Below are positions 43,026-53,162 of a stretch of 64,000 nt of DNA, piece by piece; position 1 is the first letter of the stretch, and each line of letters begins with the position of its first letter. This stretch comes from a plasmid. The notes below the pieces were generated by a model, which saw only the letters and a program-made list of their open reading frames with translations, was not told the DNA's origin and made no database searches. Made by a program: the position numbers and the translations under genes. The stretch lies in sequence record NZ_CP071296.1; one strand, given 5' to 3'.

Positions 43026-44399
43026 TTAGAAATCCCTTTGAGAATGTTTATATACATTCAAGGTAACCAGCCAACTAATGACAATGATTCCTGAAAAAAG
43101 TAATAACAAATTACTATACAGATAAGTTGACTGATCAACTTCCATAGGTAACAACCTTTGATCAAGTAAGGGTATGGATAATAAACCACCTACAATTGCA
43201 ATACCTGTTCCCTCTGATAAAAAGCTGGTAAAGTTAAGCAAACTCATTCCAGCACCAGCTTCCTGCTGTTTCAAGCTACTTGAAACAATTGTTGATATAA
43301 CTGTTTTGGTGAACGAAAGCCCACCTAAAACAAATACGATTATAATTGTCATGAACCATGATGTTGTTTCTAAAAGAAAGGAAGCAGTTAAAAAGCTAAC
43401 AGAAAGAAATGTAACTCCGATGTTTAACACGTATAAAGGACCTCTTCTATCAACAAGTATCCCACCAATGTAGCCGAAAATAATGACACTCATTGTTCCA
43501 GGGAAAATAATTACACTTCCGATTTCGGCAGTACTTAGCTGGTGAACATCTTTCATCATATAAGGAACCATAGAGACAAACCCTGCTACTGTTCCAAATA
43601 TAATTCCCCCACAAAGAACTCCAATCATAAAAGGTATATTTTTCCCTAATCCGGGATCAACAAAAGGATCTGTTACTTTCCTGATATGTTTTACAAATAT
43701 CAGGAATGACAGCACGCTAACGATAAGAAAAGAAATGCTATATGATGTTGTAAACAACATAAAAAATACAATGCCTACAGACATTAGTATAATTCCTTTG
43801 ATATCAAAATGACCTTTTATCCTTACTTCTTTCTTTAATAATTTCATAAGAAACGGAACAGTGATAATTGTTATCATAGGAATGAGTAGAAGATAGGACC
43901 AATGAATATAATGGGCTATCATTCCACCAATCGCTGGACCGACTCCTTCTCCCATGGCTACTATCGATCCAATAAGACCAAATGCTTTACCCCTATTTTC
44001 CTTTGGAATATAGCGCGCAACTACAACCATTACGAGTGCTGGAAATGCAGCTGCACCAGCCCCTTGAATAAAACGAGCCATAATAAGTAAGGAAAAGAAA
44101 GAATGGCCAACAAACCCAATTACCGACCCGAAACAATTTATTATAATTCCAAATAGGAGTAACCTTTTGATGCCTAATTGATCAGATAGCTTTCCATATA
44201 CAGCTGTTCCAATGGAAAAGGTTAACATAAAGGCTGTGTTCACCCAGTTTGTACTCGCAGGTGGTTTATTAAAATCATTTGCAATATCAGGTAATGAGAC
44301 GTTCAAAACCATTTCATTTAATACGCTAAAAAAAGATAAAATGCAAAGCCAAATTAAAATTTGGTTGTATTGAACCCTGTTACATTCATTACACTTCAT
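43026..44399 (-). CDS. tet(L): Tetracycline efflux MFS transporter Tet(L) (457 aa)
   Basis: From residue ~14 onward ([32 protein letters not shown]...) it matches Tet(L) as recalled. The N-terminal 13 aa ([13 protein letters not shown]) differ from the recalled MNTSYSQSNLRHNQ. Confidence 0.85.
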
Positions 44400-44457
44400 A
44401 ATTAATTCCTCCTAAACTTGATTAAAACATTTTACCACATATAAACTAAGTTTTAAA

Positions 44458-45266
44458 GGTTCTGTTGCAAAGTTTTAAATCTACTATCAAATAAGGTAGA
44501 ATAATAGAAAAAGATAGCAGGAGGAATGACGATGAATCATTTTAAAGGAAAGCAATTTCAGCAGGATGTGATTATTGTAGCCGTGGGCTACTATCTTCGT
44601 TATAACCTTAGCTATCGTGAAGTTCAAGAAATCTTATATGATCGTGGCATTAACGTTTCTCATACGACGATTTATCGTTGGGTGCAAGAATATGGCAAAC
44701 TACTCTATCAAATTTGGAAAAAGAAAAATAAAAAATCCTTTTATTCCTGGAAAATGGATGAAACGTACATCAAAATTAAAGGAAAATGGCATTATTTGTA
44801 TCGAGCCATCGATGCAGATGGTTTAACCTTGGATATTTGGTTACGTAAAAAACGGGACACACAAGCAGCCTATGCTTTTCTTAAGCGGTTAGTGAAGCAG
44901 TTTGATGAACCGAAGGTTGTAGTCACAGATAAAGCACCATCAATTGCTAGTGCCTTTAAGAAACTAAAAGAATACGGATTTTATCAAGGGACAGAACATC
45001 GTACCATTAAATACCTGAATAATTTGATTGAACAAGACCATCGTCCAGTAAAGAGACGCAATAAATTCTATCGAAGTTTACGCACTGCCTCACCCACGAT
45101 TAAAGGCATGGAAGCCATCCGAGGATTATATAAGAAAACCCGAAAAGAAGGCACTCTCTTCGGGTTTTCGGTCTGTACTGAAATCAAGGTATTATTGGGA
45201 ATCCCAGATTAAATCATAGATACCGTAAGGGATTTTATTCTTTATTTAAAACTTTGCAACAGAACC
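44458..45266 (+). mobile_element. IS6-family insertion sequence IS1216-type, copy 6 (carries a short ISS1-like patch)
   Basis: IRs at 44458 and ending 45266. Transposase residues SIASAFKK and the matching DNA (aaagcaccatcaattgctagtgcc) equal copy 2 (7712..8520) rather than IS1216. No TSD. Confidence 0.85.
44526..45212 (+). CDS. IS1216-type transposase (228 aa, C-terminal GIPD variant)
   Basis: IS6 transposase homolog. Confidence 0.9.
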   Translation: MTMNHFKGKQFQQDVIIVAVGYYLRYNLSYREVQEILYDRGINVSHTTIYRWVQEYGKLLYQIWKKKNKKSFYSWKMDETYIKIKGKWHYLYRAIDADGLTLDIWLRKKRDTQAAYAFLKRLVKQFDEPKVVVTDKAPSIASAFKKLKEYGFYQGTEHRTIKYLNNLIEQDHRPVKRRNKFYRSLRTASPTIKGMEAIRGLYKKTRKEGTLFGFSVCTEIKVLLGIPD

Positions 45267-45526
45267 CATGATAAGCCCTCCATTTAAAAATTGACAATGG
45301 ACAACCCGAGGGAAGGTTACTTACACAAAAAGTGCTACGGAATACCGACCGTATATTGTTTTTATGTCTCTATAAAATTATCATATTAATTAACTAATTT
45401 CTAGTTTCTAATTTTTTTATGGTTTTTACTAGTCATAACTTAACAGTTTTGAGCTCTTTTTGTGTATACTATAAATAAAGAGATTTCAACAGCTCATAAC
45501 TAGGGGTTATAAATAGAGGAGAAATT

Positions 45527-46093
45527 ATGAAATTTGGATATGCTCGAGTGAGTACAACGGATCAAAAATTAGAAAGTCAAATTGAAAATTTAAAAGCTGC
45601 AGGGGCAGAAAAAATTTATCAAGAAAAATTTACTGGGACAACAACAGAACGACCAGAATTTCAAAAATTACTTGGCCAGCTGAAAAAAGATGATATGCTT
45701 ATTGTGACGAAATTGGACCGATTTGCAAGAAATACTCGAGAAGCTTTGGAAATCATTCAGCATCTATTCCAGAATGATATAAAAGTGCATATCTTAAACA
45801 TGGGGATTATTGATAACACTCCCACAGGTCAGCTTATCTTCACGATTTTTAGTGCATTTGCGCAGTTTGAAAGAGATATGATAGTTAACCGTACGAGTGA
45901 GGGGAAAAAATATGCCAGGGATAACGACCCATCATTTAAAGAAGGGCGTCCTCGAAAATTTACTGAAGAACAAATTATTTTTGCTTTTGAACTGAAGAAG
46001 CAGGGGATGACTTATAAAATGATTGAGCGAAAAACTGGGATTAGCATTGCGACGCAAAAAAGAAGGTTTAGTAAACTTACGACCAAAGAGTAA
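45527..46093 (+). CDS. Serine recombinase (resolvase/invertase family)
   Basis: Catalytic-serine N-terminus [13 protein letters not shown] and a C-terminal HTH. Confidence 0.8.
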
Positions 46094-46346: not shown

Positions 46347-47225
46347 CTAATTTAATAGTCCTTGATATACACGTTCAAAAATTTTTCTATTAAATTCAAT
46401 CAAAAAATTAAAATCTATTCTTTGATTCGAAGGTATCTGAGGTATAACTTTACTGTTATAATCTGTTTCTAATCTTTGGAGGAGTTCCTGGGAAGGATTG
46501 ATAAATTCCTTGATTAAATCAATCGGGACAAGTTTAATATCAAACATTTTTCTAATAATAGCTATATTATCAATCGAATCAATATTCATGAAATATTCTG
46601 GTTTACTCGTGAGAGTTGTATATATATCGTACAGATCTCTAGAGCGGGTTTTAGGTGAAGAAATCTCATAATCTGGCAATTGTTGACAGCTTGCACGAAT
46701 TTTTTCATCAACAATCATCAGTGGAGAATATATAAAAATATCAATGCCATCATAATTATATTGTTGCCTGTCTTCTGTTATTTCATCAAAACTTAAATCT
46801 ATACAAATTTTTTTTTGACTATTTTCAATAGATTCCGCATAAGCACCTGGATTCTTTTTTTGGGTTTCATTGAGTTGTTGAAATATTTCTTCTGAGATAA
46901 TCGTAAAAGTTACTGCATAGCCTCCCCAAAAAGGTGGGGTATTTTCTCCTCTTTTTGATGGTCTATGTTCAAACTTGAAATTAACTACTCTATATCCTAA
47001 GTTTAAAAAAGAACTGGAAATAACTTCAAGAAAAATAGGGCCATGTATTTCTTTGTCTAATCTTTTAGATTCAGCTATCGAAAAATCTAAATCTTGAGAT
47101 TGCCTTTGTGTAATTCCTAAAAGCTTTAAAGCATTGCCTCCTTTTAATGTAAGTAAGCTTGCCAAATCAGGATTAGAGAAAATAGCTGTTAAACATGTCA
47201 TTCGAATTTTATCTGGTGTAATCAT
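46347..47225 (-). CDS. Nucleotidyltransferase of the AbiEii/DUF1814 family (abortive-infection / type IV TA toxin-like)
   Basis: N-terminal motif LKGGNALKLLGITQRQSQDLDFSI matches the GGxAL...DLDF nucleotidyltransferase signature of AbiEii. Confidence 0.6.
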   Translation of the reverse strand: MITPDKIRMTCLTAIFSNPDLASLLTLKGGNALKLLGITQRQSQDLDFSIAESKRLDKEIHGPIFLEVISSSFLNLGYRVVNFKFEHRPSKRGENTPPFWGGYAVTFTIISEEIFQQLNETQKKNPGAYAESIENSQKKICIDLSFDEITEDRQQYNYDGIDIFIYSPLMIVDEKIRASCQQLPDYEISSPKTRSRDLYDIYTTLTSKPEYFMNIDSIDNIAIIRKMFDIKLVPIDLIKEFINPSQELLQRLETDYNSKVIPQIPSNQRIDFNFLIEFNRKIFERVYQGLLN

Positions 47226-47297
47226 TAAGTATCTCCATTGAAGTATGTATCTATTTTATCATAAATTCTATATTGGATTGTTATAGAAGAAAATTGA

Positions 47298-47411
47298 AGA
47301 TAAAATAATAGCTATAGTATATATACTATAGCTATCTTTATATTTGTAATTTTGCTATAATTTAGATAGAGATAAAATAATAGCTATAGTATATATACTA
47401 TAGCTATCTTT
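47298..47411. repeat. Two 42-bp direct repeats (47298-47339, 47370-47411), each containing the 28-bp perfect palindrome ATAGCTATAGTATATATACTATAGCTAT, in the divergent promoter region
   Basis: agataaaataatagctatagtatatatactatagctatcttt occurs twice, 72 bp apart, between two divergent genes. Confidence 0.85.
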
Positions 47412-47435
47412 TGAAAAATATATTTGGAGACTTTT

Positions 47436-48359
47436 ATGGATAAAGACCCATATCATTTGAAAGAAAATAAATATCTATTACAAGAACTAGGGCAAACTTT
47501 TGGAAATGTTCTCAATCGCACATCCATGATAAATTTTATAAAGAAAGCTAAAAATGAGTCAAACATCTCAAAAAATGTGAGTTTTGGTATTATGGTGAAA
47601 TATTTAGTAGATCATTTAGATTTATTTGATGAAATTCGAATTTACCCAGAAGGAAAAGAACCCATTTCAAGGTACGTTGCTAAATATTGTGTAGTTTCTC
47701 CATATGAAATTGCCCTTTCATTATTATCAAATTCTTTTTTATCGCATTATAGTGCTTTATATGTAAATGATTTAACAATAAATGAACCTAAAGATATATA
47801 TATAAATAGAGAGCAAACGGCAAAGCCTAAAAATGATTCTAATGCCAAGTTAACTCAAGGAAAAATTGATTATGCCTTTTCTAAACCAATGCGAAGAACA
47901 AATACCGTTTATTTATTTAGGTATAAGGGAGTAATGTATAATGTTTTTGTTTTAAATTCAAAGAATACAAAAAATACTGGTATTATAAAAAAGAAACCTG
48001 TAGGATTCTCTAAGGCTATAAGAGTAACTAATTTAGAAAGAACATTAGTAGATACTGTAGTACGGCCACAATATAGTGGAGGTTTTTCAGAAATACTTGA
48101 AGCATATAAGACAGCCTGCTTTGATGTAGATTTAAAACGTATCAACAAATATATTAAAAAATTTGATTATATTTATCCTTATGAAAAATCCATTCTTTTG
48201 TATCTTAAATACACTGAAAATCAGAAGTTATTTAACCAACTTAGGAATTTATGGATAGATAAAATTGAGGATGATTTAAATTTCTACTTAGACTATCAAA
48301 TGTTACAAACTGTACTTGACAAAGATTTAAATATTTATTATCCAAAAGACCTTAAATAA
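47436..48359 (+). CDS. Lys-rich putative regulator/antitoxin partner of the AbiEii-like gene (AbiEi-like, assigned by position only)
   Basis: Divergent from the nucleotidyltransferase gene. GGAGA RBS before ATG (MDKDPYHLKENK); the track ORF begins at an upstream TTG. Confidence 0.45.
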   Translation: MDKDPYHLKENKYLLQELGQTFGNVLNRTSMINFIKKAKNESNISKNVSFGIMVKYLVDHLDLFDEIRIYPEGKEPISRYVAKYCVVSPYEIALSLLSNSFLSHYSALYVNDLTINEPKDIYINREQTAKPKNDSNAKLTQGKIDYAFSKPMRRTNTVYLFRYKGVMYNVFVLNSKNTKNTGIIKKKPVGFSKAIRVTNLERTLVDTVVRPQYSGGFSEILEAYKTACFDVDLKRINKYIKKFDYIYPYEKSILLYLKYTENQKLFNQLRNLWIDKIEDDLNFYLDYQMLQTVLDKDLNIYYPKDLK

Positions 48360-48544: not shown

Positions 48545-48895
48545 ACTATAAAAGTAGACACAAATATGTGTATTATAATCTGTCTAAGAAGACACAAAAA
48601 CGAAAGGACTTTTATGTCAGGCTTTAAACGTTACGACGAGGAATTTAAACAATCTCTTGTCACCCTCTACCAAACAGGTAAAACTCAATCTGAACTCTGT
48701 AAAGACTATGGAGTCTCCGTTTCTGCACTTGCAAAATGGATCAACCAGTACTCTCAAGTTCGTCTTGAAGATAATACAGTGTTGACTGCTAAACAGATTC
48801 AAGAATTGCAAAAACGCAATGCCCAATTAGAGGAAGAGAACTTTTTTAAGAAAATATAGTTCATTTTCTGTCTAATTATTTGACATTAGTCCAAT
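48545..48895 (+). mobile_element. IS3-family deletion derivative: left end plus orfA plus right end, with no orfB (~350 bp)
   Basis: Left end TATACTATAAAAGTAGACA (as at 60305) and right end TTTCTGTCTAATTATTTGACATTAGTCCA immediately after the orfA stop. Confidence 0.6.
48614..48859 (+). CDS. IS3-family transposase OrfA (HTH), from the deletion derivative
   Basis: MSGFKRYDEEFKQSLVTLYQTGKTQSELCKDYGVS...; 80% identical to the orfA at 60357. Confidence 0.7.
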   Translation: MSGFKRYDEEFKQSLVTLYQTGKTQSELCKDYGVSVSALAKWINQYSQVRLEDNTVLTAKQIQELQKRNAQLEEENFFKKI

Positions 48896-49001
48896 CTAGT
48901 ACAATATCATTTTGAGAAACAATATTGGTTCCTTTTTTCATCTGGCATTAGGTCTGGATCTTGTGTAGGATCAGAATCTATTGTGTCCTCTTTAGACCAT
49001 T

Positions 49002-49691
49002 TTAAGCATAATCATCTTCAAGCCTATCAATATCTAGTATTTTGATTACCTTTCCTCGACGCTCAATGAATCCCTTTTCTTCTAGTATTTTGAACTTACG
49101 AGAAATAGTTTCGGGAGTTGTTCCAATGAACGTTGCGAGATCTTTCATTTTCATTGGAATCGTAACAAGATTTGAATCTACTATTTTGACGAGTTGCAAA
49201 AGATAATTAGCGATTCGACTTTCAACATCTTCCATCATGAGAAATTGTGCTTGATATTGCATTTCCGCAGCTCTTCTCACGGTGGTTTCAAGTAATTTCA
49301 AACTTAGCTCGGGATATTTTAACAATAAATTTTTGAAATCTTGTTGTCGCAAAAAGCAAATTTTTGTTTCTTGCAATGTTTCGCCATAAAGATTCTCATT
49401 CACTACTCCAAACAAGGCGTCTTCACCTGCGTATCCACCAGGTTCAATTACACGTAGTAACTGCTCTTTACCAGCGCTAGAAAGCTGATATATCTTTAAA
49501 GTACCGTGCGCCACAATTGCGAGTTGAGGCACCGTAAAAGGGCTGATGACCGCTTCGCCCTTTTCAAAAGTCTTATGATGAACAACCTGCTCAACTTGCG
49601 CCAGTTCACTTTCTGAAAGTAAAGCAAATAGTGGGACAAGCTGTACACAGTGGTGTTCATCATGACTAAAATGATGTTCATACTTGCTCAT
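49002..49691 (-). CDS. flp: Crp/Fnr-family regulator (FNR-like protein Flp type)
   Basis: cNMP-binding-like domain plus C-terminal HTH (DLATFIGTTPETISRKF). Third gene of an orfX-orfY-flp arrangement. Confidence 0.7.
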   Translation of the reverse strand: MSKYEHHFSHDEHHCVQLVPLFALLSESELAQVEQVVHHKTFEKGEAVISPFTVPQLAIVAHGTLKIYQLSSAGKEQLLRVIEPGGYAGEDALFGVVNENLYGETLQETKICFLRQQDFKNLLLKYPELSLKLLETTVRRAAEMQYQAQFLMMEDVESRIANYLLQLVKIVDSNLVTIPMKMKDLATFIGTTPETISRKFKILEEKGFIERRGKVIKILDIDRLEDDYA

Positions 49692-49776
49692 TTTGGTAAT
49701 TCTCCTTATCTTATTATCGCGCTAAAATTATAAAACTGCAAGCTTTGTTCAATTAAAGCCTACAGTTTCGTAAAAA

Positions 49777-50325
49777 TTAATTGTCATTATCTTCATCTTC
49801 GTCATGAAAATCAGCAACAGCTTTACCCAAATCACCTGCCAAGTGACGAATAACTTGAAGATTGTAGCCGTAAAGTTCGACTACAACAGCCGCCAAAGCA
49901 AATTTTTCTTCTTTATTTGCTAGCTTAATTGCTCGCGTAATGAACATATTTTGTGCTTGAAAATCTGCAATGAAGCTTTCAAGTAGAGCTTCATCAGTCC
50001 AATATTTGGCTTTTGGATCCTCAGTAATGAACTTGTGATACTTTAAAAATTCTTCAGTTGTACTTGGTACAATCTCATTTTCGTCAAGAAGTAAATCCGA
50101 AATTTTAAAGAAATATTCATCTTCTTTTTTTGCAATTTCACGTAAATGCTCACACTTAACTGGGCTTTTCGCGTATATTCCTGCTTGAGTCAGTCGTACA
50201 TTTTCAATGAACAAATTGGATAAGACATGTCCTAGCATCGCACCAGCCGTAGGCTTGTGGTGGTCAACCTCTGCTTTATCAAGTTCTTTAGCATATTTTT
50301 CATCAATCGTTAATTTAGTCATCAA
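49777..50325 (-). CDS. dps: Dps-family ferritin-like protein
   Basis: Dps fold signature (..HVLSNLFIENVRLTQAGIYAKSP.. / ..EEKFALAAVVVELYGYNLQVIRHLAGD). Confidence 0.8.
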   Translation of the reverse strand: MMTKLTIDEKYAKELDKAEVDHHKPTAGAMLGHVLSNLFIENVRLTQAGIYAKSPVKCEHLREIAKKEDEYFFKISDLLLDENEIVPSTTEEFLKYHKFITEDPKAKYWTDEALLESFIADFQAQNMFITRAIKLANKEEKFALAAVVVELYGYNLQVIRHLAGDLGKAVADFHDEDEDNDN

Positions 50326-50370
50326 TTTTTTCCTTTATTCAATTTATAGTGCTGTCTTTACTGGTAGAAA

Positions 50371-50598
50371 TCACACAACAGTTACTTTGCTACTTAAAAC
50401 AGGGTACCCAAGTTTCTCAACCTTGCTGATAAGTTCATCAGCACTGACAACATTTTCGTCAAATTCTGCTTTAACTTTTGATGCATTGAAAAGCACTTTT
50501 GCATTTGCTACACCCTTAGTTGTAGTCATTGCTCCTTCGATTTTTGCCATGCAAGATGGGCAGCTCAATTCATTGAGTTTCATAATTACTTTTGACAT
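50371..50598 (-). CDS. Heavy-metal-associated (HMA) domain metallochaperone (CopZ-like)
   Basis: CPSC metal-binding motif within a ferredoxin-like ~70-aa domain. AGAGGTGA RBS. Confidence 0.75.
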   Translation of the reverse strand: MSKVIMKLNELSCPSCMAKIEGAMTTTKGVANAKVLFNASKVKAEFDENVVSADELISKVEKLGYPVLSSKVTVV

Positions 50599-50660
50599 AA
50601 GATTCACCTCTTTCTCTTTCTTTATAAATTAATTATAACTCGTTAGTACTAGCAAAAAAT

Positions 50661-50674
50661 TGATATCTATCAAG
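50661..50674. promoter_or_regulatory. Perfect FNR/Flp box TTGATATCTATCAA (TTGAT-N4-ATCAA) upstream of the orfX-dps-flp operon
   Basis: ttgatatctatcaagaatatcaa lies ~65 bp upstream of the HMA gene start. Confidence 0.55.
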
Positions 50675-51299
50675 AATATCAATTTTATTTTTTTATCTAC
50701 AAAATAATAAAGTTTCTCGAGTCTCTTTTTTAACGCTGAATAACCTTCTATGAGGAGCGCAATCAGCACCAGTTAGAGTCTACCGAGACGGTCCGCGGAA
50801 CGGTGTTTAAATCAATCCCTAATTTTGCCTGTATGAGATTTAAAAGAGCGAAACCATTAGTGATTTTTTTAAAACATCCATCGTACATAAGATGTTTGAA
50901 GTGTTCTGAAAACGCTATGTCCCCTCCTACCTGACAATCTTCCTGTCTAGCAAATGTGTGTGTTTCCTTTTTAAATAATTGTCATTGGAACTTCCTATCT
51001 ATTTTTATAAAAAAGTTATATTGAGATAGGTATCAAAGCTTTTAAACAAGTTTAAATCCCTAACGTGCTACATTGCTTGCGATAGTTTCTCTCATAGCCT
51101 CAAATTCAGTGTCTTATTGAACCTCCCTATTAGTAAGGAAAACTTTAATTGTAAAGATTCTAGAAGCCATCGAAAATGTCTCGATGATTTTATCAAATCA
51201 TTTTTGATAAAATCATTATAAACTTTATTGATATCAAAAAAATGATTCCTTTCAAAAAAAGAAAACAAACCGCATAAATTTTGGTTTGTTTCCATTCTT

Positions 51300-53162
51300 C
51301 TATTTCTCTCGATACCTAATCAGTCGCATGCCATTGACAATGACGATAAGGATACTAGCTTCGTGGACGAACATACCTGTGCCCATGTTGACAAAACTAG
51401 GTACTAATCCTGTACCTCCAAGAATTAGACCAGCCAGTAAAAAGAGCACAACTACAATCGCAATCACAATATTTTGTGTCATGTTGGCAACCGTGCGTTT
51501 ACTCAAACCATATGCATGGACAAGTTCGTCAAAACTGGATTTCATTAGCACGATATCGGACGTTTCAATCGCAGTATCAGTACCAGAACCCATTGCAATA
51601 CCTATATTAGCAAGTGCCAAGCTAGGGGAATCGTTGACACCATCACCGATAAAAGCAATTTTTTTACCAGAGTTTTTGAGTGATTTGACAACTTCAGCTT
51701 TTTCCTCAGGCATGAGATTGGCACGTACTTCATCGATCCCAAGTTGGTCGGCGACTGCTTTAGCTGTTGTCTCGTTGTCTCCAGTCAGCATAATCATACG
51801 AGAAATACCTTCGTGGCGTAGCTCTTCGAGGGCTTCTTTGACACCAGAACGCATTTCGTCTGCGATACCATAAACCAGTTGTAATCTGTTATCAGCTGCA
51901 ACCAAAACAACTGATGCACCTGAATCAGTGATTTCTGTGATGTCCTGTTTCTGCTCGGGAGAAATCGTAATATGATTAACCACCATCATTTTTTCATTAC
52001 CAATCAATAGGTCGTCTGCGATGATTCCCTGTCCTTTAACAACGTCTGTTTTTTTAAATTTGACAGGATTGAATTCTCCAATCATGCGTACAACAGCTGT
52101 TGCTAATGGGTGATCGGATTCATTTTCTGCTGAAGCAACTGCATCAATCAATTCTTTTGAAGCACCATAATTTTTGACGACAACAACTTCTGTATTGCCT
52201 TTCGTCAGAGTACCCGTTTTATCAAACAGAAGCGTGTCAATATGACTGAAGGTATTCATAACATCACCTCCCTTAATAAGGACACCTCTTTTTGCACCAT
52301 TACCGATTCCTGCAACATTTGAAACAGGCGCACCAATCACGAGGGCACCAGGACAACCGAGTACGAGAATCGTGATGGCTAGCTCTAGATTATGACTAAA
52401 AACCCAAGCAATAGCTGCAATAACAAGTACTGCTGGCGTGTAATACTTAGCAAAGCGGTCGATGAATTTCTCAGCAGGAGATTTGGTATCTTGGGCTTCT
52501 TCAACCAGTTCAATAATTTTACCAAAAGTTGTATCTTCGCCAACTTTTTCTGCTTCTACGTAAATTGTACCATTTTCTAAGATAGAACCTGCAAAAACCT
52601 TAGCACCAGTTTCCTTTCTGATTTCACGTGATTCACCTGTGATGCTGGCTTCGTTGACATAGCCAGACCCTTGGTAAATATGACCATCAACAGGAACTTG
52701 ACGTCCTGTTTTTACTAAAAGTTTATCACCAATTTCAACTTCATCAATATCTATTTCTTCGCCATCAGCAGATAGGGCTGTGCTGGGTGCCATATTCGTG
52801 AGTTCTTTGATACTTGATCGCGTTTTTTCAAGCGTTTTTTTCTCCAAAAATCCACCGAAAGCGAAGAGAAAAGTGACAATTGCTGATTCTTCGTATTCAC
52901 CGATGAACAGAGCACCGATAACTGCAATAGAAACTAGCAGGTCAATCGAAATTTGTTTCACTTTGATTGCTTGATAGGCATGAATTGCAACAGGTATAAA
53001 ACCGATAATACTTGCAATAATCATTGTCGAATTCCAAATCCATATTTGATTTACACCATATTTACCAAGGTATCCGAGTACAATGAGAATGGCTGAGAGG
53101 ATAACCAAGTGATTACTGTGTTGTTGAAGTTGTTTTTGAAAGTTCAGTGTTATTTTTGCCAT
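51300..53162 (-). CDS. P-type ATPase (P1B-like heavy-metal type) with an atypical CPG transmembrane motif and no N-terminal HMA domain, 620 aa
   Basis: DKTGTLT, TGD, GDGVNDSPSL. TM6 reads LGCPGALVIGAP. Confidence 0.75.
   Translation of the reverse strand: MAKITLNFQKQLQQHSNHLVILSAILIVLGYLGKYGVNQIWIWNSTMIIASIIGFIPVAIHAYQAIKVKQISIDLLVSIAVIGALFIGEYEESAIVTFLFAFGGFLEKKTLEKTRSSIKELTNMAPSTALSADGEEIDIDEVEIGDKLLVKTGRQVPVDGHIYQGSGYVNEASITGESREIRKETGAKVFAGSILENGTIYVEAEKVGEDTTFGKIIELVEEAQDTKSPAEKFIDRFAKYYTPAVLVIAAIAWVFSHNLELAITILVLGCPGALVIGAPVSNVAGIGNGAKRGVLIKGGDVMNTFSHIDTLLFDKTGTLTKGNTEVVVVKNYGASKELIDAVASAENESDHPLATAVVRMIGEFNPVKFKKTDVVKGQGIIADDLLIGNEKMMVVNHITISPEQKQDITEITDSGASVVLVAADNRLQLVYGIADEMRSGVKEALEELRHEGISRMIMLTGDNETTAKAVADQLGIDEVRANLMPEEKAEVVKSLKNSGKKIAFIGDGVNDSPSLALANIGIAMGSGTDTAIETSDIVLMKSSFDELVHAYGLSKRTVANMTQNIVIAIVVVLFLLAGLILGGTGLVPSFVNMGTGMFVHEASILIVIVNGMRLIRYREK

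Follow-up and report, generated by a model that had tools for sequence, protein, structure and literature searches.

How is an AbiE-type toxin–antitoxin (TA) pair controlled when its two genes lie on opposite strands with long palindromes between them? The question is raised by positions 46,347 to 48,359 of a 64,000-nucleotide stretch of plasmid DNA (sequence record NZ_CP071296.1; the whole stretch is referred to as the window), in which a gene for a predicted nucleotidyltransferase (NTase) and a divergently oriented partner gene are separated by a spacer carrying two direct repeats. We consider it probable that this locus is a two-gene AbiE-type TA/abortive-infection module, in which an AbiEi-like autorepressor acts at the palindromes and the toxin is transcribed on its own. 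Computation established the families and folds of the proteins, how the genes are arranged in ~90 loci, and where the palindromes lie, how far they are conserved and how symmetric they are.

The nucleotidyltransferase and its AbiEi-like partner

The two genes and their putative ribosome binding sites, the latter read from the sequence, are:

46347..47225, minus strand: DUF1814/AbiEii-family nucleotidyltransferase, predicted toxin, 292 aa (Pfam, PADLOC and AlphaFold 2 (AF2) model)
Motifs within it: G29-G30, R41-x-S43-x-D45-x-D47, D143, E174-K175-x-R177-A178 and R194/R196-D197
47232..47236, minus strand: Shine-Dalgarno-like GGAGA of the NTase gene, 6 nt before its ATG (putative)
47436..48359, plus strand: AbiEi-fold protein, predicted antitoxin and autorepressor, 307 aa from the ATG (PADLOC, AF2 model)
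47426..47430, plus strand: Shine-Dalgarno-like GGAGA of the partner gene (putative)

Judged from its sequence and predicted structure, the 292-aa protein is a DUF1814/AbiEii nucleotidyltransferase with DNA-polymerase-β-type motifs I-IV. A first-pass annotation of the DNA had said as much, and Pfam, PADLOC and the predicted fold agree with it. The open reading frame (ORF) contains LKGGNALKLLGITQRQSQDLDFS and its signature reads LKGGNAL…RQSQDLDFS. The Pfam family AbiEii (PF08843) matches with E 1.4e-14 and 55 bits (cutoff 22.5, the gathering score), and many AbiEii hidden Markov models (HMMs) of PADLOC match as well, down to E 1.9e-13. The AF2 model, with a predicted local distance difference test score (pLDDT) of 92.7, has the fold of JHP933 and Rv1045/TglT/MenT3 (probability 1.0), while sequence searches of the PDB gave only marginal JHP933 matches. 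In an alignment of 20 homologues, K28-G29-G30, R41, S43, D45, D47, E174-K175, R177-A178 and R194/R196-D197 are invariant and D143 is nearly so. JHP933 aligns at the loop R41-x-S43-x-D45-x-D47 with R-F-S-E-D-L-D-F, and the same loop resembles the R76/S78 loop of MenT3, an equivalence by motif and not by residue-level structural alignment.

The divergent partner can start at the ATG at 47436, giving 307 aa (the database form, WP_206921838) and a spacer of 210 bp (47226-47435), or at a TTG at 47424, giving 311 aa and a spacer of 198 bp. The 308 aa and 198-bp intergenic region proposed earlier correspond roughly to these two starts, and the description of the partner as Lys-rich is moderately true (11.4% K). 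PADLOC HMMs for AbiEi match the protein with E 1.1e-17. Its AF2 model (pLDDT 93.5) comprises an N-terminal winged-helix unit of three helices and a β-hairpin (~residues 1-85) and, after it, a larger α/β domain. In the PDB, the top four matches of this model are to the two solved AbiEi-family antitoxins, namely AbiEi of S. agalactiae (6Y8Q, E 2e-7) and Rv2827c of M. tuberculosis (1ZEL), with probability 1.0, TM 0.43-0.63 and ~10-12% identity in the structural alignment. The two domains that characterize AbiEi (COG5340), a winged helix-turn-helix (wHTH) and a C-terminal antitoxicity domain, are thus present at the level of the fold. Pfam AbiEi_1 is matched by 2 of 27 relatives of the partner, and the JGI name of some relatives is "transcriptional regulator of viral defense system". 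Since the model best matches 6Y8Q and 1ZEL, the pair can be read as an AbiE pair. The earlier proposal that the divergent neighbor is the partner of the NTase is borne out by this two-domain fold and by the co-occurrence of the NTase in 79 of 83 related loci.

Weaker Foldseek matches of the partner model, below those to AbiEi, are to the NTase folds JHP933, TglT, ANT(2'')-Ia and MenAT1; conversely, the NTase model weakly matches AbiEi 6Y8Q. These models hint at a distant fold relationship between the C-terminal domain of the antitoxin and the toxin. Some homologues of the partner (P0150, P0179, P0182 and related proteins of ~400 aa) have a C-terminal extension of ~75-100 aa, which the window protein lacks.

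Both proteins occur, with exact identity, in Lactococcus sp. LG1267 on a 71.9-kb plasmid contig, where the partner is annotated as "hypothetical protein". A search of PLSDB for near-identical DNA gave a match confined to a 66-bp flank, which places the plasmid itself outside that collection. The NCBI product label also carries the name AbiG (AbiGi/AbiGii, known from pCI750). Such labels on AbiE homologues are misannotations according to Dy et al. (PMC3985639), and a 2026 review lists AbiGi and AbiGii as having no structural relatives.

Arrangement of the pair across related loci

A profile of the partner family gave 351 confirmed loci in species-representative genomes, of which the best 80 were kept; the NTase was placed by tblastn, and start codons of un-annotated loci were set heuristically. 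Wherever the NTase was located, in these 80 genome loci and in 8 annotated plasmids, it is on the strand opposite to the partner gene, and co-directional pairs number 0. The divergent arrangement of the window is found in 12 genome loci, from Pseudolactococcus, Trichococcus, Enterococcus, several Streptococcus species and a Psychroflexus metagenome-assembled genome (MAG), with protein identities to the window of 43-69%, and also on the annotated L. petauri plasmid CP146757. The genes are convergent in 63 loci from Bacillota, Bacteroidota, Planctomycetota, Acidobacteriota, Pseudomonadota and one archaeal MAG, at 30-43% identity. In 54 of these 63 the coding 3' ends overlap, by exactly 24 nt in 23 loci, and overlaps of 4, 14, 27 and 36 nt also recur (convergent L021-L086; plasmids L088, L089, L091-L094). 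Convergent overlap is likewise present in the PGAP annotation of six more plasmids (Planococcus pNM8, Burkholderia pMSMB1471 and plasmids of S. epidermidis, B. subtilis (9 kb), Riemerella and Veillonella), on all of which PGAP calls the partner "hypothetical protein".

Clustering of the ORFs yields two conserved families only, the partner in 83 loci and the NTase in 79. There is no third conserved gene, and the next ORF clusters (at most 20 loci), when spot-checked, seemed to be shadow frames of these genes. The antitoxin-first bicistronic operon treated as general for AbiE is found neither in the window nor in the relatives examined. The departure from co-directional AbiE seen in the first-pass annotation is hence no accident of one plasmid, since opposite strands are conserved across related loci. 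The pair belongs to a large AbiE sub-clade with its genes on opposite strands, comprising a divergent branch mainly in Lactobacillales and a convergent arrangement in most lineages.

Regarding the extent of the sub-clade, the partner profile, run against 1.84 billion cluster representatives, matched 742 clusters (50% identity) at a threshold of E ≤ 1e-30, and 1,211 when this was relaxed to E ≤ 1e-10. A single relative was found on viral contigs, so the system is not typically phage-borne. Many PLSDB members are on very small plasmids (7-25 kb), for example a 9.1-kb Rep/MobV plasmid of B. subtilis with 7 annotated genes, which fits a role in plasmid maintenance as well as one in defence.

A few loci depart from the two-gene pattern. 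The chromosome of Salinicoccus sp. YB14-2 (L008) has a homologue of the partner and one degenerate palindrome with no NTase in the fetched flanks, and Enterococcus diestrammenae (L020) has a 5'-truncated partner match, also with no NTase in the fetched flanks; both may be orphan or decayed modules. In Granulicatella sp. WM01 (L015, 1493-3760), ~2.2 kb is inserted between the NTase start and the palindromes, which remain with the partner gene. The insert holds three small unannotated ORFs (110-143 aa), which may be fragments of mobilisation genes.

Palindromes and candidate promoters in the spacer

The elements of the spacer are listed below; the two promoter boxes are candidates read from the sequence.

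47298..47339, no strand: 42-bp direct repeat, copy 1, holding palindrome P1 (47308-47335) with centre GTATATATAC
47370..47411, no strand: 42-bp direct repeat, copy 2, holding palindrome P2 (47380-47407), its centre 43 nt upstream of the partner ATG
47253..47261, minus strand: candidate extended −10 TGATAAAAT of a separate NTase promoter, outside the palindromes
47353..47361, plus strand: candidate extended −10 TGCTATAAT of the partner promoter, between P1 and P2

The two 42-bp repeats with 28-bp perfect palindromes, 72 bp apart, which had been noticed earlier, were recovered where they had been placed: the repeats are 100% identical over 42 nt and 72 nt apart from start to start, and P1 and P2 are each the perfect 28-nt palindrome ATAGCTATAGTATATATACTATAGCTAT. 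At up to 3 mismatches, ATAGCTATAGTATATATACTATAGCTAT occurs at these two sites only in the 64-kb window, and 0 of 100 shuffles contained a match. Spacers of the divergent branch contain one or two copies of AGCTATrGTATATATACyATAGCT. When eight divergent spacers are aligned, no other block than this 24-bp core, within P1, is invariant, although the proteins are just 43-69% identical. Where the core differs, it does so symmetrically: A/T is replaced by G/C on either side, and in several streptococci the second copy has GT/AC in place of GC.

Across the family, 166 perfect palindromes with arms of at least 11 nt were found in 603 kb, 150 of them within 430 nt upstream of the partner start; the rest are mostly just beyond this zone or in loci fetched in the opposite orientation. 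The centre is GTATATATAC in 139 palindromes and GTGTATACAC in 11, and GCGTATACGC, GCATGCATGC and TCATATATGA were also encountered. A locus has 0-4 copies, most often 2 (39 loci), with adjacent centres mostly 48-130 bp apart; the distribution of arm lengths has a sharp peak at 14. The proximal centre lies 18-61 nt ahead of the first ATG in frame with the partner in 47 of 66 loci. None of the 63 convergent loci has such a palindrome before its NTase. The presence of inverted repeats before the partner gene, and their position there, are strongly non-random.

These counts bear on the view of the first-pass annotation that the palindromes could form an operator for both promoters. In the divergent branch the two palindromes would then control the NTase and the partner gene alike, for instance if each of them supplied a −10 on one strand, and the repressor would set the transcription of toxin and antitoxin jointly. 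The palindromes do lie between the two start codons, their TATATA centre gives a −10-like hexamer on both strands, the single palindrome of L010 and L011 is roughly midway between the genes, and a consensus scan lists minus-strand TATACT hexamers within P2. Nevertheless, all 63 convergent relatives have palindromes before the partner only, which argues that their ancestral role is specific to the antitoxin. In addition, the separate TGATAAAAT box is nearer to the NTase start, and by eye −10-like TGATAGAAT, TGATATAAT and TGGTATAAT are at the matching place before the NTase in several divergent homologue loci; from a promoter at TGATAAAAT, P1 would be located upstream at about −62 to −89. As originally put, the shared operator is therefore unsupported, and we regard it as unlikely. 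Because the palindromes are confined to the partner side in convergent relatives and TGATAAAAT is found near the NTase, they are best read, on these comparative grounds, as primarily the control element of the antitoxin gene itself. In the divergent branch they may, secondarily, also affect the NTase promoter.

For the partner gene, counterparts of TGCTATAAT are seen at the same place in L007 (TGATATAAT) and L009 (TGATAGAAT), and the TATATA centre of P2 is an alternative −10. Given a promoter at TGCTATAAT, P1 would extend from about −60 to −33 and P2 from about +13 to +40. In the GC-rich loci L039, L058 and L078 the palindrome reaches directly to the ATG, and no −10-like element other than its TATATA centre is found close by, a layout suggesting that the partner promoter uses the centre as its −10.

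An invertible promoter, with the palindromes flanking a promoter that would be turned by the serine recombinase encoded at 45527-46093, was considered and rejected: the recombinase is not conserved with the module, and the TGnTAnAAT box between the palindromes faces the partner gene in every divergent locus examined.

With regard to copy number, in L004 (Logan SRR31860683), which encodes both of these proteins, the 42-bp repeat is present only once and the spacer is 138 bp long, exactly 72 bp shorter; five further Logan contigs break inside the repeat. Either L004 has truly lost the sequence between the direct repeats, or the assembly has collapsed them.

Symmetry of the palindrome arms

Counted from the centre, arm positions 1-5 hardly vary in the family, conservation is weak at positions 6-7, and there is almost no information in positions 8-14. 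A comparison of arms in the 45 convergent loci with at least 2 palindromes gave the following values:

Arm positions 6-7: same-locus identity 0.78; identity between loci 0.46; own-arm complementarity 0.97
Arm positions 8-10: same-locus identity 0.55; identity between loci 0.32; own-arm complementarity 0.99
Arm positions 11-14: same-locus identity 0.37; identity between loci 0.30; own-arm complementarity 0.95
Arm positions 17-22: own-arm complementarity 0.38

The inner arm is shared within a locus and differs between loci, which points to a locus-specific recognition sequence, as would suit a repressor co-evolving with its site. In the outer arm, self-complementarity is the only property that is selected for, or generated. 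Since outer arms are 95% self-complementary while their sequence is free, a protein reading two half-sites cannot explain them, and either cruciform pairing or quasi-palindrome correction comes into consideration.

In the first case, the palindromes would be a structure-dependent operator, extruding as cruciforms (or as hairpins on both strands), a rather doubtful proposal that is nonetheless compatible with the favored explanation as an added layer. The easily melted, alternating purine-pyrimidine centre would nucleate extrusion and arms of at least 14 bp would stabilise it. Extrusion might hide or expose the −10-like centre, or make the form recognised by the AbiEi-like protein, and transcription of the antitoxin would then respond to supercoiling or to junction-processing enzymes of phages. 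Such pairing is consistent with the self-complementarity of positions 11-14 at 37% same-locus identity against a background of 30%, with its fall to 38% at positions 17-22, and with the sharp lower bound of arm length at 13-14. It is also consistent with L029, L036 and L079, which are asymmetric at positions 6-8 while their outer arms still pair, with centre variants that are symmetric transitions only and keep the purine-pyrimidine alternation, and with the fold of the 28-nt unit as single-stranded DNA (−8.3 kcal/mol, z −2.7). Among 128 distinct palindromes, 1,744 of 1,792 pairs are Watson-Crick, and G:T types account for 6 of 48 mismatches, with no enrichment; the lack of a G:T excess means that symmetry is kept on both strands, as a cruciform needs and an RNA hairpin does not. 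On the other hand, extrusion is putative, being suggested by sequence, AT-rich 12-bp stems would be marginally stable, the perfect symmetry is possibly a mutational by-product, and no AbiEi is known as a cruciform binder, that of S. agalactiae binding linear duplex probes. The fuller version, in which the palindromes are cruciform or hairpin promoter-operators whose centre doubles as the −10 and whose arms are selected for self-complementarity to ~14 bp, so as to gate antitoxin transcription through the secondary structure of the DNA (under supercoiling, or under attack by junction-resolving or structure-specific enzymes of phages), with the toxin transcribed independently and in most lineages antisense, seems to us less likely again.

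In the second case, the inner ~9-10 bp of each arm would be the operator, the outer symmetry arising during replication from quasi-palindrome correction by template switching, which is an established mutational process at such sequences. Arm lengths above 14 nt do decay geometrically with a ratio of ~0.5, against ~0.3 by chance, consistent with a tendency to extend. But there is a sharp mode at 14, with few arms below 13, across very different phyla, which speaks against a neutral process, since this would be expected to give a broad distribution starting from the functional core (~9-10). Outer-arm symmetry is, moreover, kept even where positions 6-8 are mismatched. We hold a mere by-product to be distinctly unlikely.

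The least likely of the proposals, and in our view an improbable one, is an element acting in RNA, that is, leader hairpins serving attenuation or termination, RNase III processing, translational control or protein binding. With the TGCTATAAT promoter, P2 would be located at about +13 to +40 of the partner transcript, and in some loci a palindrome abutting the start codon could mask ribosome binding. The palindromes with their A/T runs (47307-47336 and 47379-47408) scored as intrinsic-terminator-like on both strands, 4 against 0.6 expected. A terminator reading of the 42-bp repeats was, however, rejected, as the flanking T-runs are not conserved and are missing from most relatives. Against RNA stems in general, the ~1800 pairs show no G·U tolerance, which is atypical of them; a search of Rfam with the spacer gave sub-threshold hairpin look-alikes only, with no family at threshold; and a 14-19-bp hairpin at the ATG would block translation constitutively, unless the transcription start site were inside the palindrome.

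Z-DNA and restriction-site readings of the alternating centre were also considered; the centre variants are related by transitions and thus do not provide independent evidence. Folded as a single strand, 47290-47420 pairs P1 with P2 in a 28-bp long-range stem (−24.2 kcal/mol) rather than in local hairpins (−8.8 each). The outer arms of the two palindromes differ in most convergent relatives, which would prevent cross-pairing and recombination between the copies.

Proposed mode of control and points that weigh on it

For DNA binding, promoter positions, toxicity, phosphorylation and phage defence, we infer the following from the data above and from related systems. The favored explanation is that the wHTH domain of the partner binds the palindromes, with two protomers per palindrome, and represses its own promoter, as is the case for AbiEi at IR1/IR2; the sites bound by AbiEi are 23-bp inverted repeats in its own promoter (PMC3985639), and those bound by Rv2827c are two inverted-repeat pairs (PMC7319586). 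In the window, the repressed promoter would be that of the TGCTATAAT box between P1 and P2, or that of the TATATA centre of P2. Autorepression would hold the antitoxin at a set level. The NTase would be expressed from its own promoter outside the palindromes, and synthesis of toxin and antitoxin would thereby be uncoupled. In the convergent majority, read-through of each gene would be antisense to the other and might add mutual interference, which is absent in the divergent window.

As for neutralisation, AbiEi of S. agalactiae has been shown to induce auto-phosphorylation of AbiEii, at T65 (bioRxiv 10.64898/2026.01.19.700257), and in MenAT3 the antitoxin likewise induces that of MenT3, at S78 in its R76/S78 loop (PMC11375011). 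By analogy, the C-terminal domain of the partner may neutralise the NTase by inducing auto-phosphorylation of an active-site Ser, with S43 in R-x-S-x-D-x-D as the candidate residue. Auto-phosphorylation needs no stoichiometric co-expression, so that linkage in an operon could be lost. The free NTase would presumably modify tRNA 3' ends and thus arrest translation.

Several points weigh against this explanation. The partner has no match in Pfam, NCBIfam or PHROGs and no sequence match in the PDB, and its assignment to AbiEi depends on the predicted fold, on COG-based names and on PADLOC HMMs that were possibly built from its own family. A scan of the AT-rich spacer with the σ70 consensus gave 15 matches against 14.3 in shuffles, not above chance, so the promoter positions given here are comparative inferences only. 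The statement that the genes are never co-directional covers the 80 top-scoring loci out of 351 in genomes, together with 8 annotated plasmids, a part of the family. A simple repressor-operator model fails to explain arm positions 11-14, which are symmetric yet unrelated. AbiE of S. agalactiae, expressed in E. coli, gave no protection against 32 coliphages, and a role in defence can therefore not be assumed. Lastly, a literature search found no experimental report on this sub-clade as regards binding, toxicity, transcription starts or phage.

Significance and genomic context

AbiE has been described as the fourth most abundant phage-defence system (PMC11375011), and here a coherent sub-clade of it breaks the operon rule in a conserved way, with PGAP leaving the antitoxin as "hypothetical protein". 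If transcription is indeed independent or mutually antisense, a second scheme for the silencing and triggering of AbiE would be needed; independent transcription would fit neutralisation by auto-phosphorylation of the toxin induced by AbiEi rather than by stoichiometric sequestration. The palindromes offer a rare natural case of a bacterial operator whose sequence covariation points to secondary structure in the DNA. Should the antitoxin promoter be gated by structure, this would be a new logic of sensing and regulation in one sub-clade of an abundant defence/TA family. From a practical point of view, a name for the partner could be added to annotation pipelines, and such systems will escape TA finders in which both genes must be on the same strand.

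The module is situated in a mosaic of mobile and resistance genes (43026-46093 and 48566-53162). These neighbors were assigned from ORFs and the Pfam labels on matching contigs, the major facilitator superfamily (MFS), IS6 and recombinase genes by eye:

43026-44399, minus strand: 457-aa MFS efflux protein, Tet(L)-like by appearance
44526-45212, plus strand: IS6-family transposase
45527-46093, plus strand: 188-aa serine recombinase
48566-48859, plus strand: IS3 OrfA-like HTH
49002-49691, minus strand: Crp/Fnr-type regulator
49777-50325, minus strand: Ferritin/Dps-like protein
50371-50607, minus strand: HMA metallochaperone
51300-53162, minus strand: 620-aa P-type ATPase

Comparison with known systems

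Canonical AbiE is a bicistronic operon with the regulator before the NTase "in each case" (Dy et al., 2014; PMC3985639), in agreement with the first-pass annotation, which had described it as co-directional with the antitoxin first. The AbiE system of S. agalactiae, now reclassified as type VII (bioRxiv 10.64898/2026.01.19.700257), shares with the window the catalytic motifs of its DUF1814 NTase, long inverted repeats ahead of the antitoxin gene and a location on a mobile element. Its AbiEi (6Y8Q) combines a wHTH and a C-terminal domain and is the best structural match of the window partner. In contrast to the window pair, it is bicistronic, with the antitoxin first and a 4-nt overlap, and its AbiEi has 195 aa against 307 aa, with no detectable sequence similarity between the two. 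The repeats differ too: the operator of S. agalactiae is one pair of 23-bp arms with a 3-bp gap and a conserved 11 bp at the outer ends, whereas the window has two 28-bp palindromes with a conserved centre.

The second-best match of the partner is the ~295-aa AbiEi-fold antitoxin of the Rv2827c–Rv2826c pair of M. tuberculosis (MenA4/MenT4; PMC7319586; 1ZEL). In its promoter, inverted repeats occur in two sets, no more than ~130 bp from the start codon, matching the two-palindrome layout of the window, but the genes form a co-directional operon, the repeats have 23-bp arms with a 13-bp gap, and neither a conserved TATATA-type centre nor hairpin-like covariation is reported for them. Paired inverted repeats before AbiEi genes are therefore already known (IR1/IR2 of S. 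agalactiae; rv2827c), a point missed in the first-pass annotation. A conserved centre with free self-complementary arms is without precedent among the AbiE repeats compared.

Gene order is not fixed in DUF1814/AbiEi-like pairs, as RlegTA, SanaTA and SdenTA have the DUF1814 toxin first and a COG5340-like antitoxin second; these are still co-directional two-gene units, and their antitoxins are smaller (136-205 aa). Convergent genes with overlapping 3' ends are found in the type I TA loci txpA/RatA and bsrG/SR4 of Bacillus subtilis. Like the 54 overlapping convergent relatives, these loci overlap tail-to-tail, which suggests a possible coupling through antisense or transcription interference. Their antitoxin is a non-coding RNA, however, whereas both genes are protein-coding here, and the window copy is divergent with no 3' overlap.

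Closest in habitat is AbiE of the Lactococcus lactis plasmid pNP40, which, like the window pair, is a two-gene system on a lactococcal plasmid (AbiEii has 298 aa) and is the one member of the family for which phage resistance has been demonstrated in Lactococcus. Its abiEi and abiEii genes, in work attributed to Garvey et al. in 1995, are said to be adjacent and co-directional under one shared promoter. Neither an opposite-strand arrangement of AbiE nor GTATATATAC palindromes were found described in the literature searched, which was largely without subscription journals. By protein content, the window pair is AbiE, and it differs from known AbiE in the arrangement of its genes on opposite strands.

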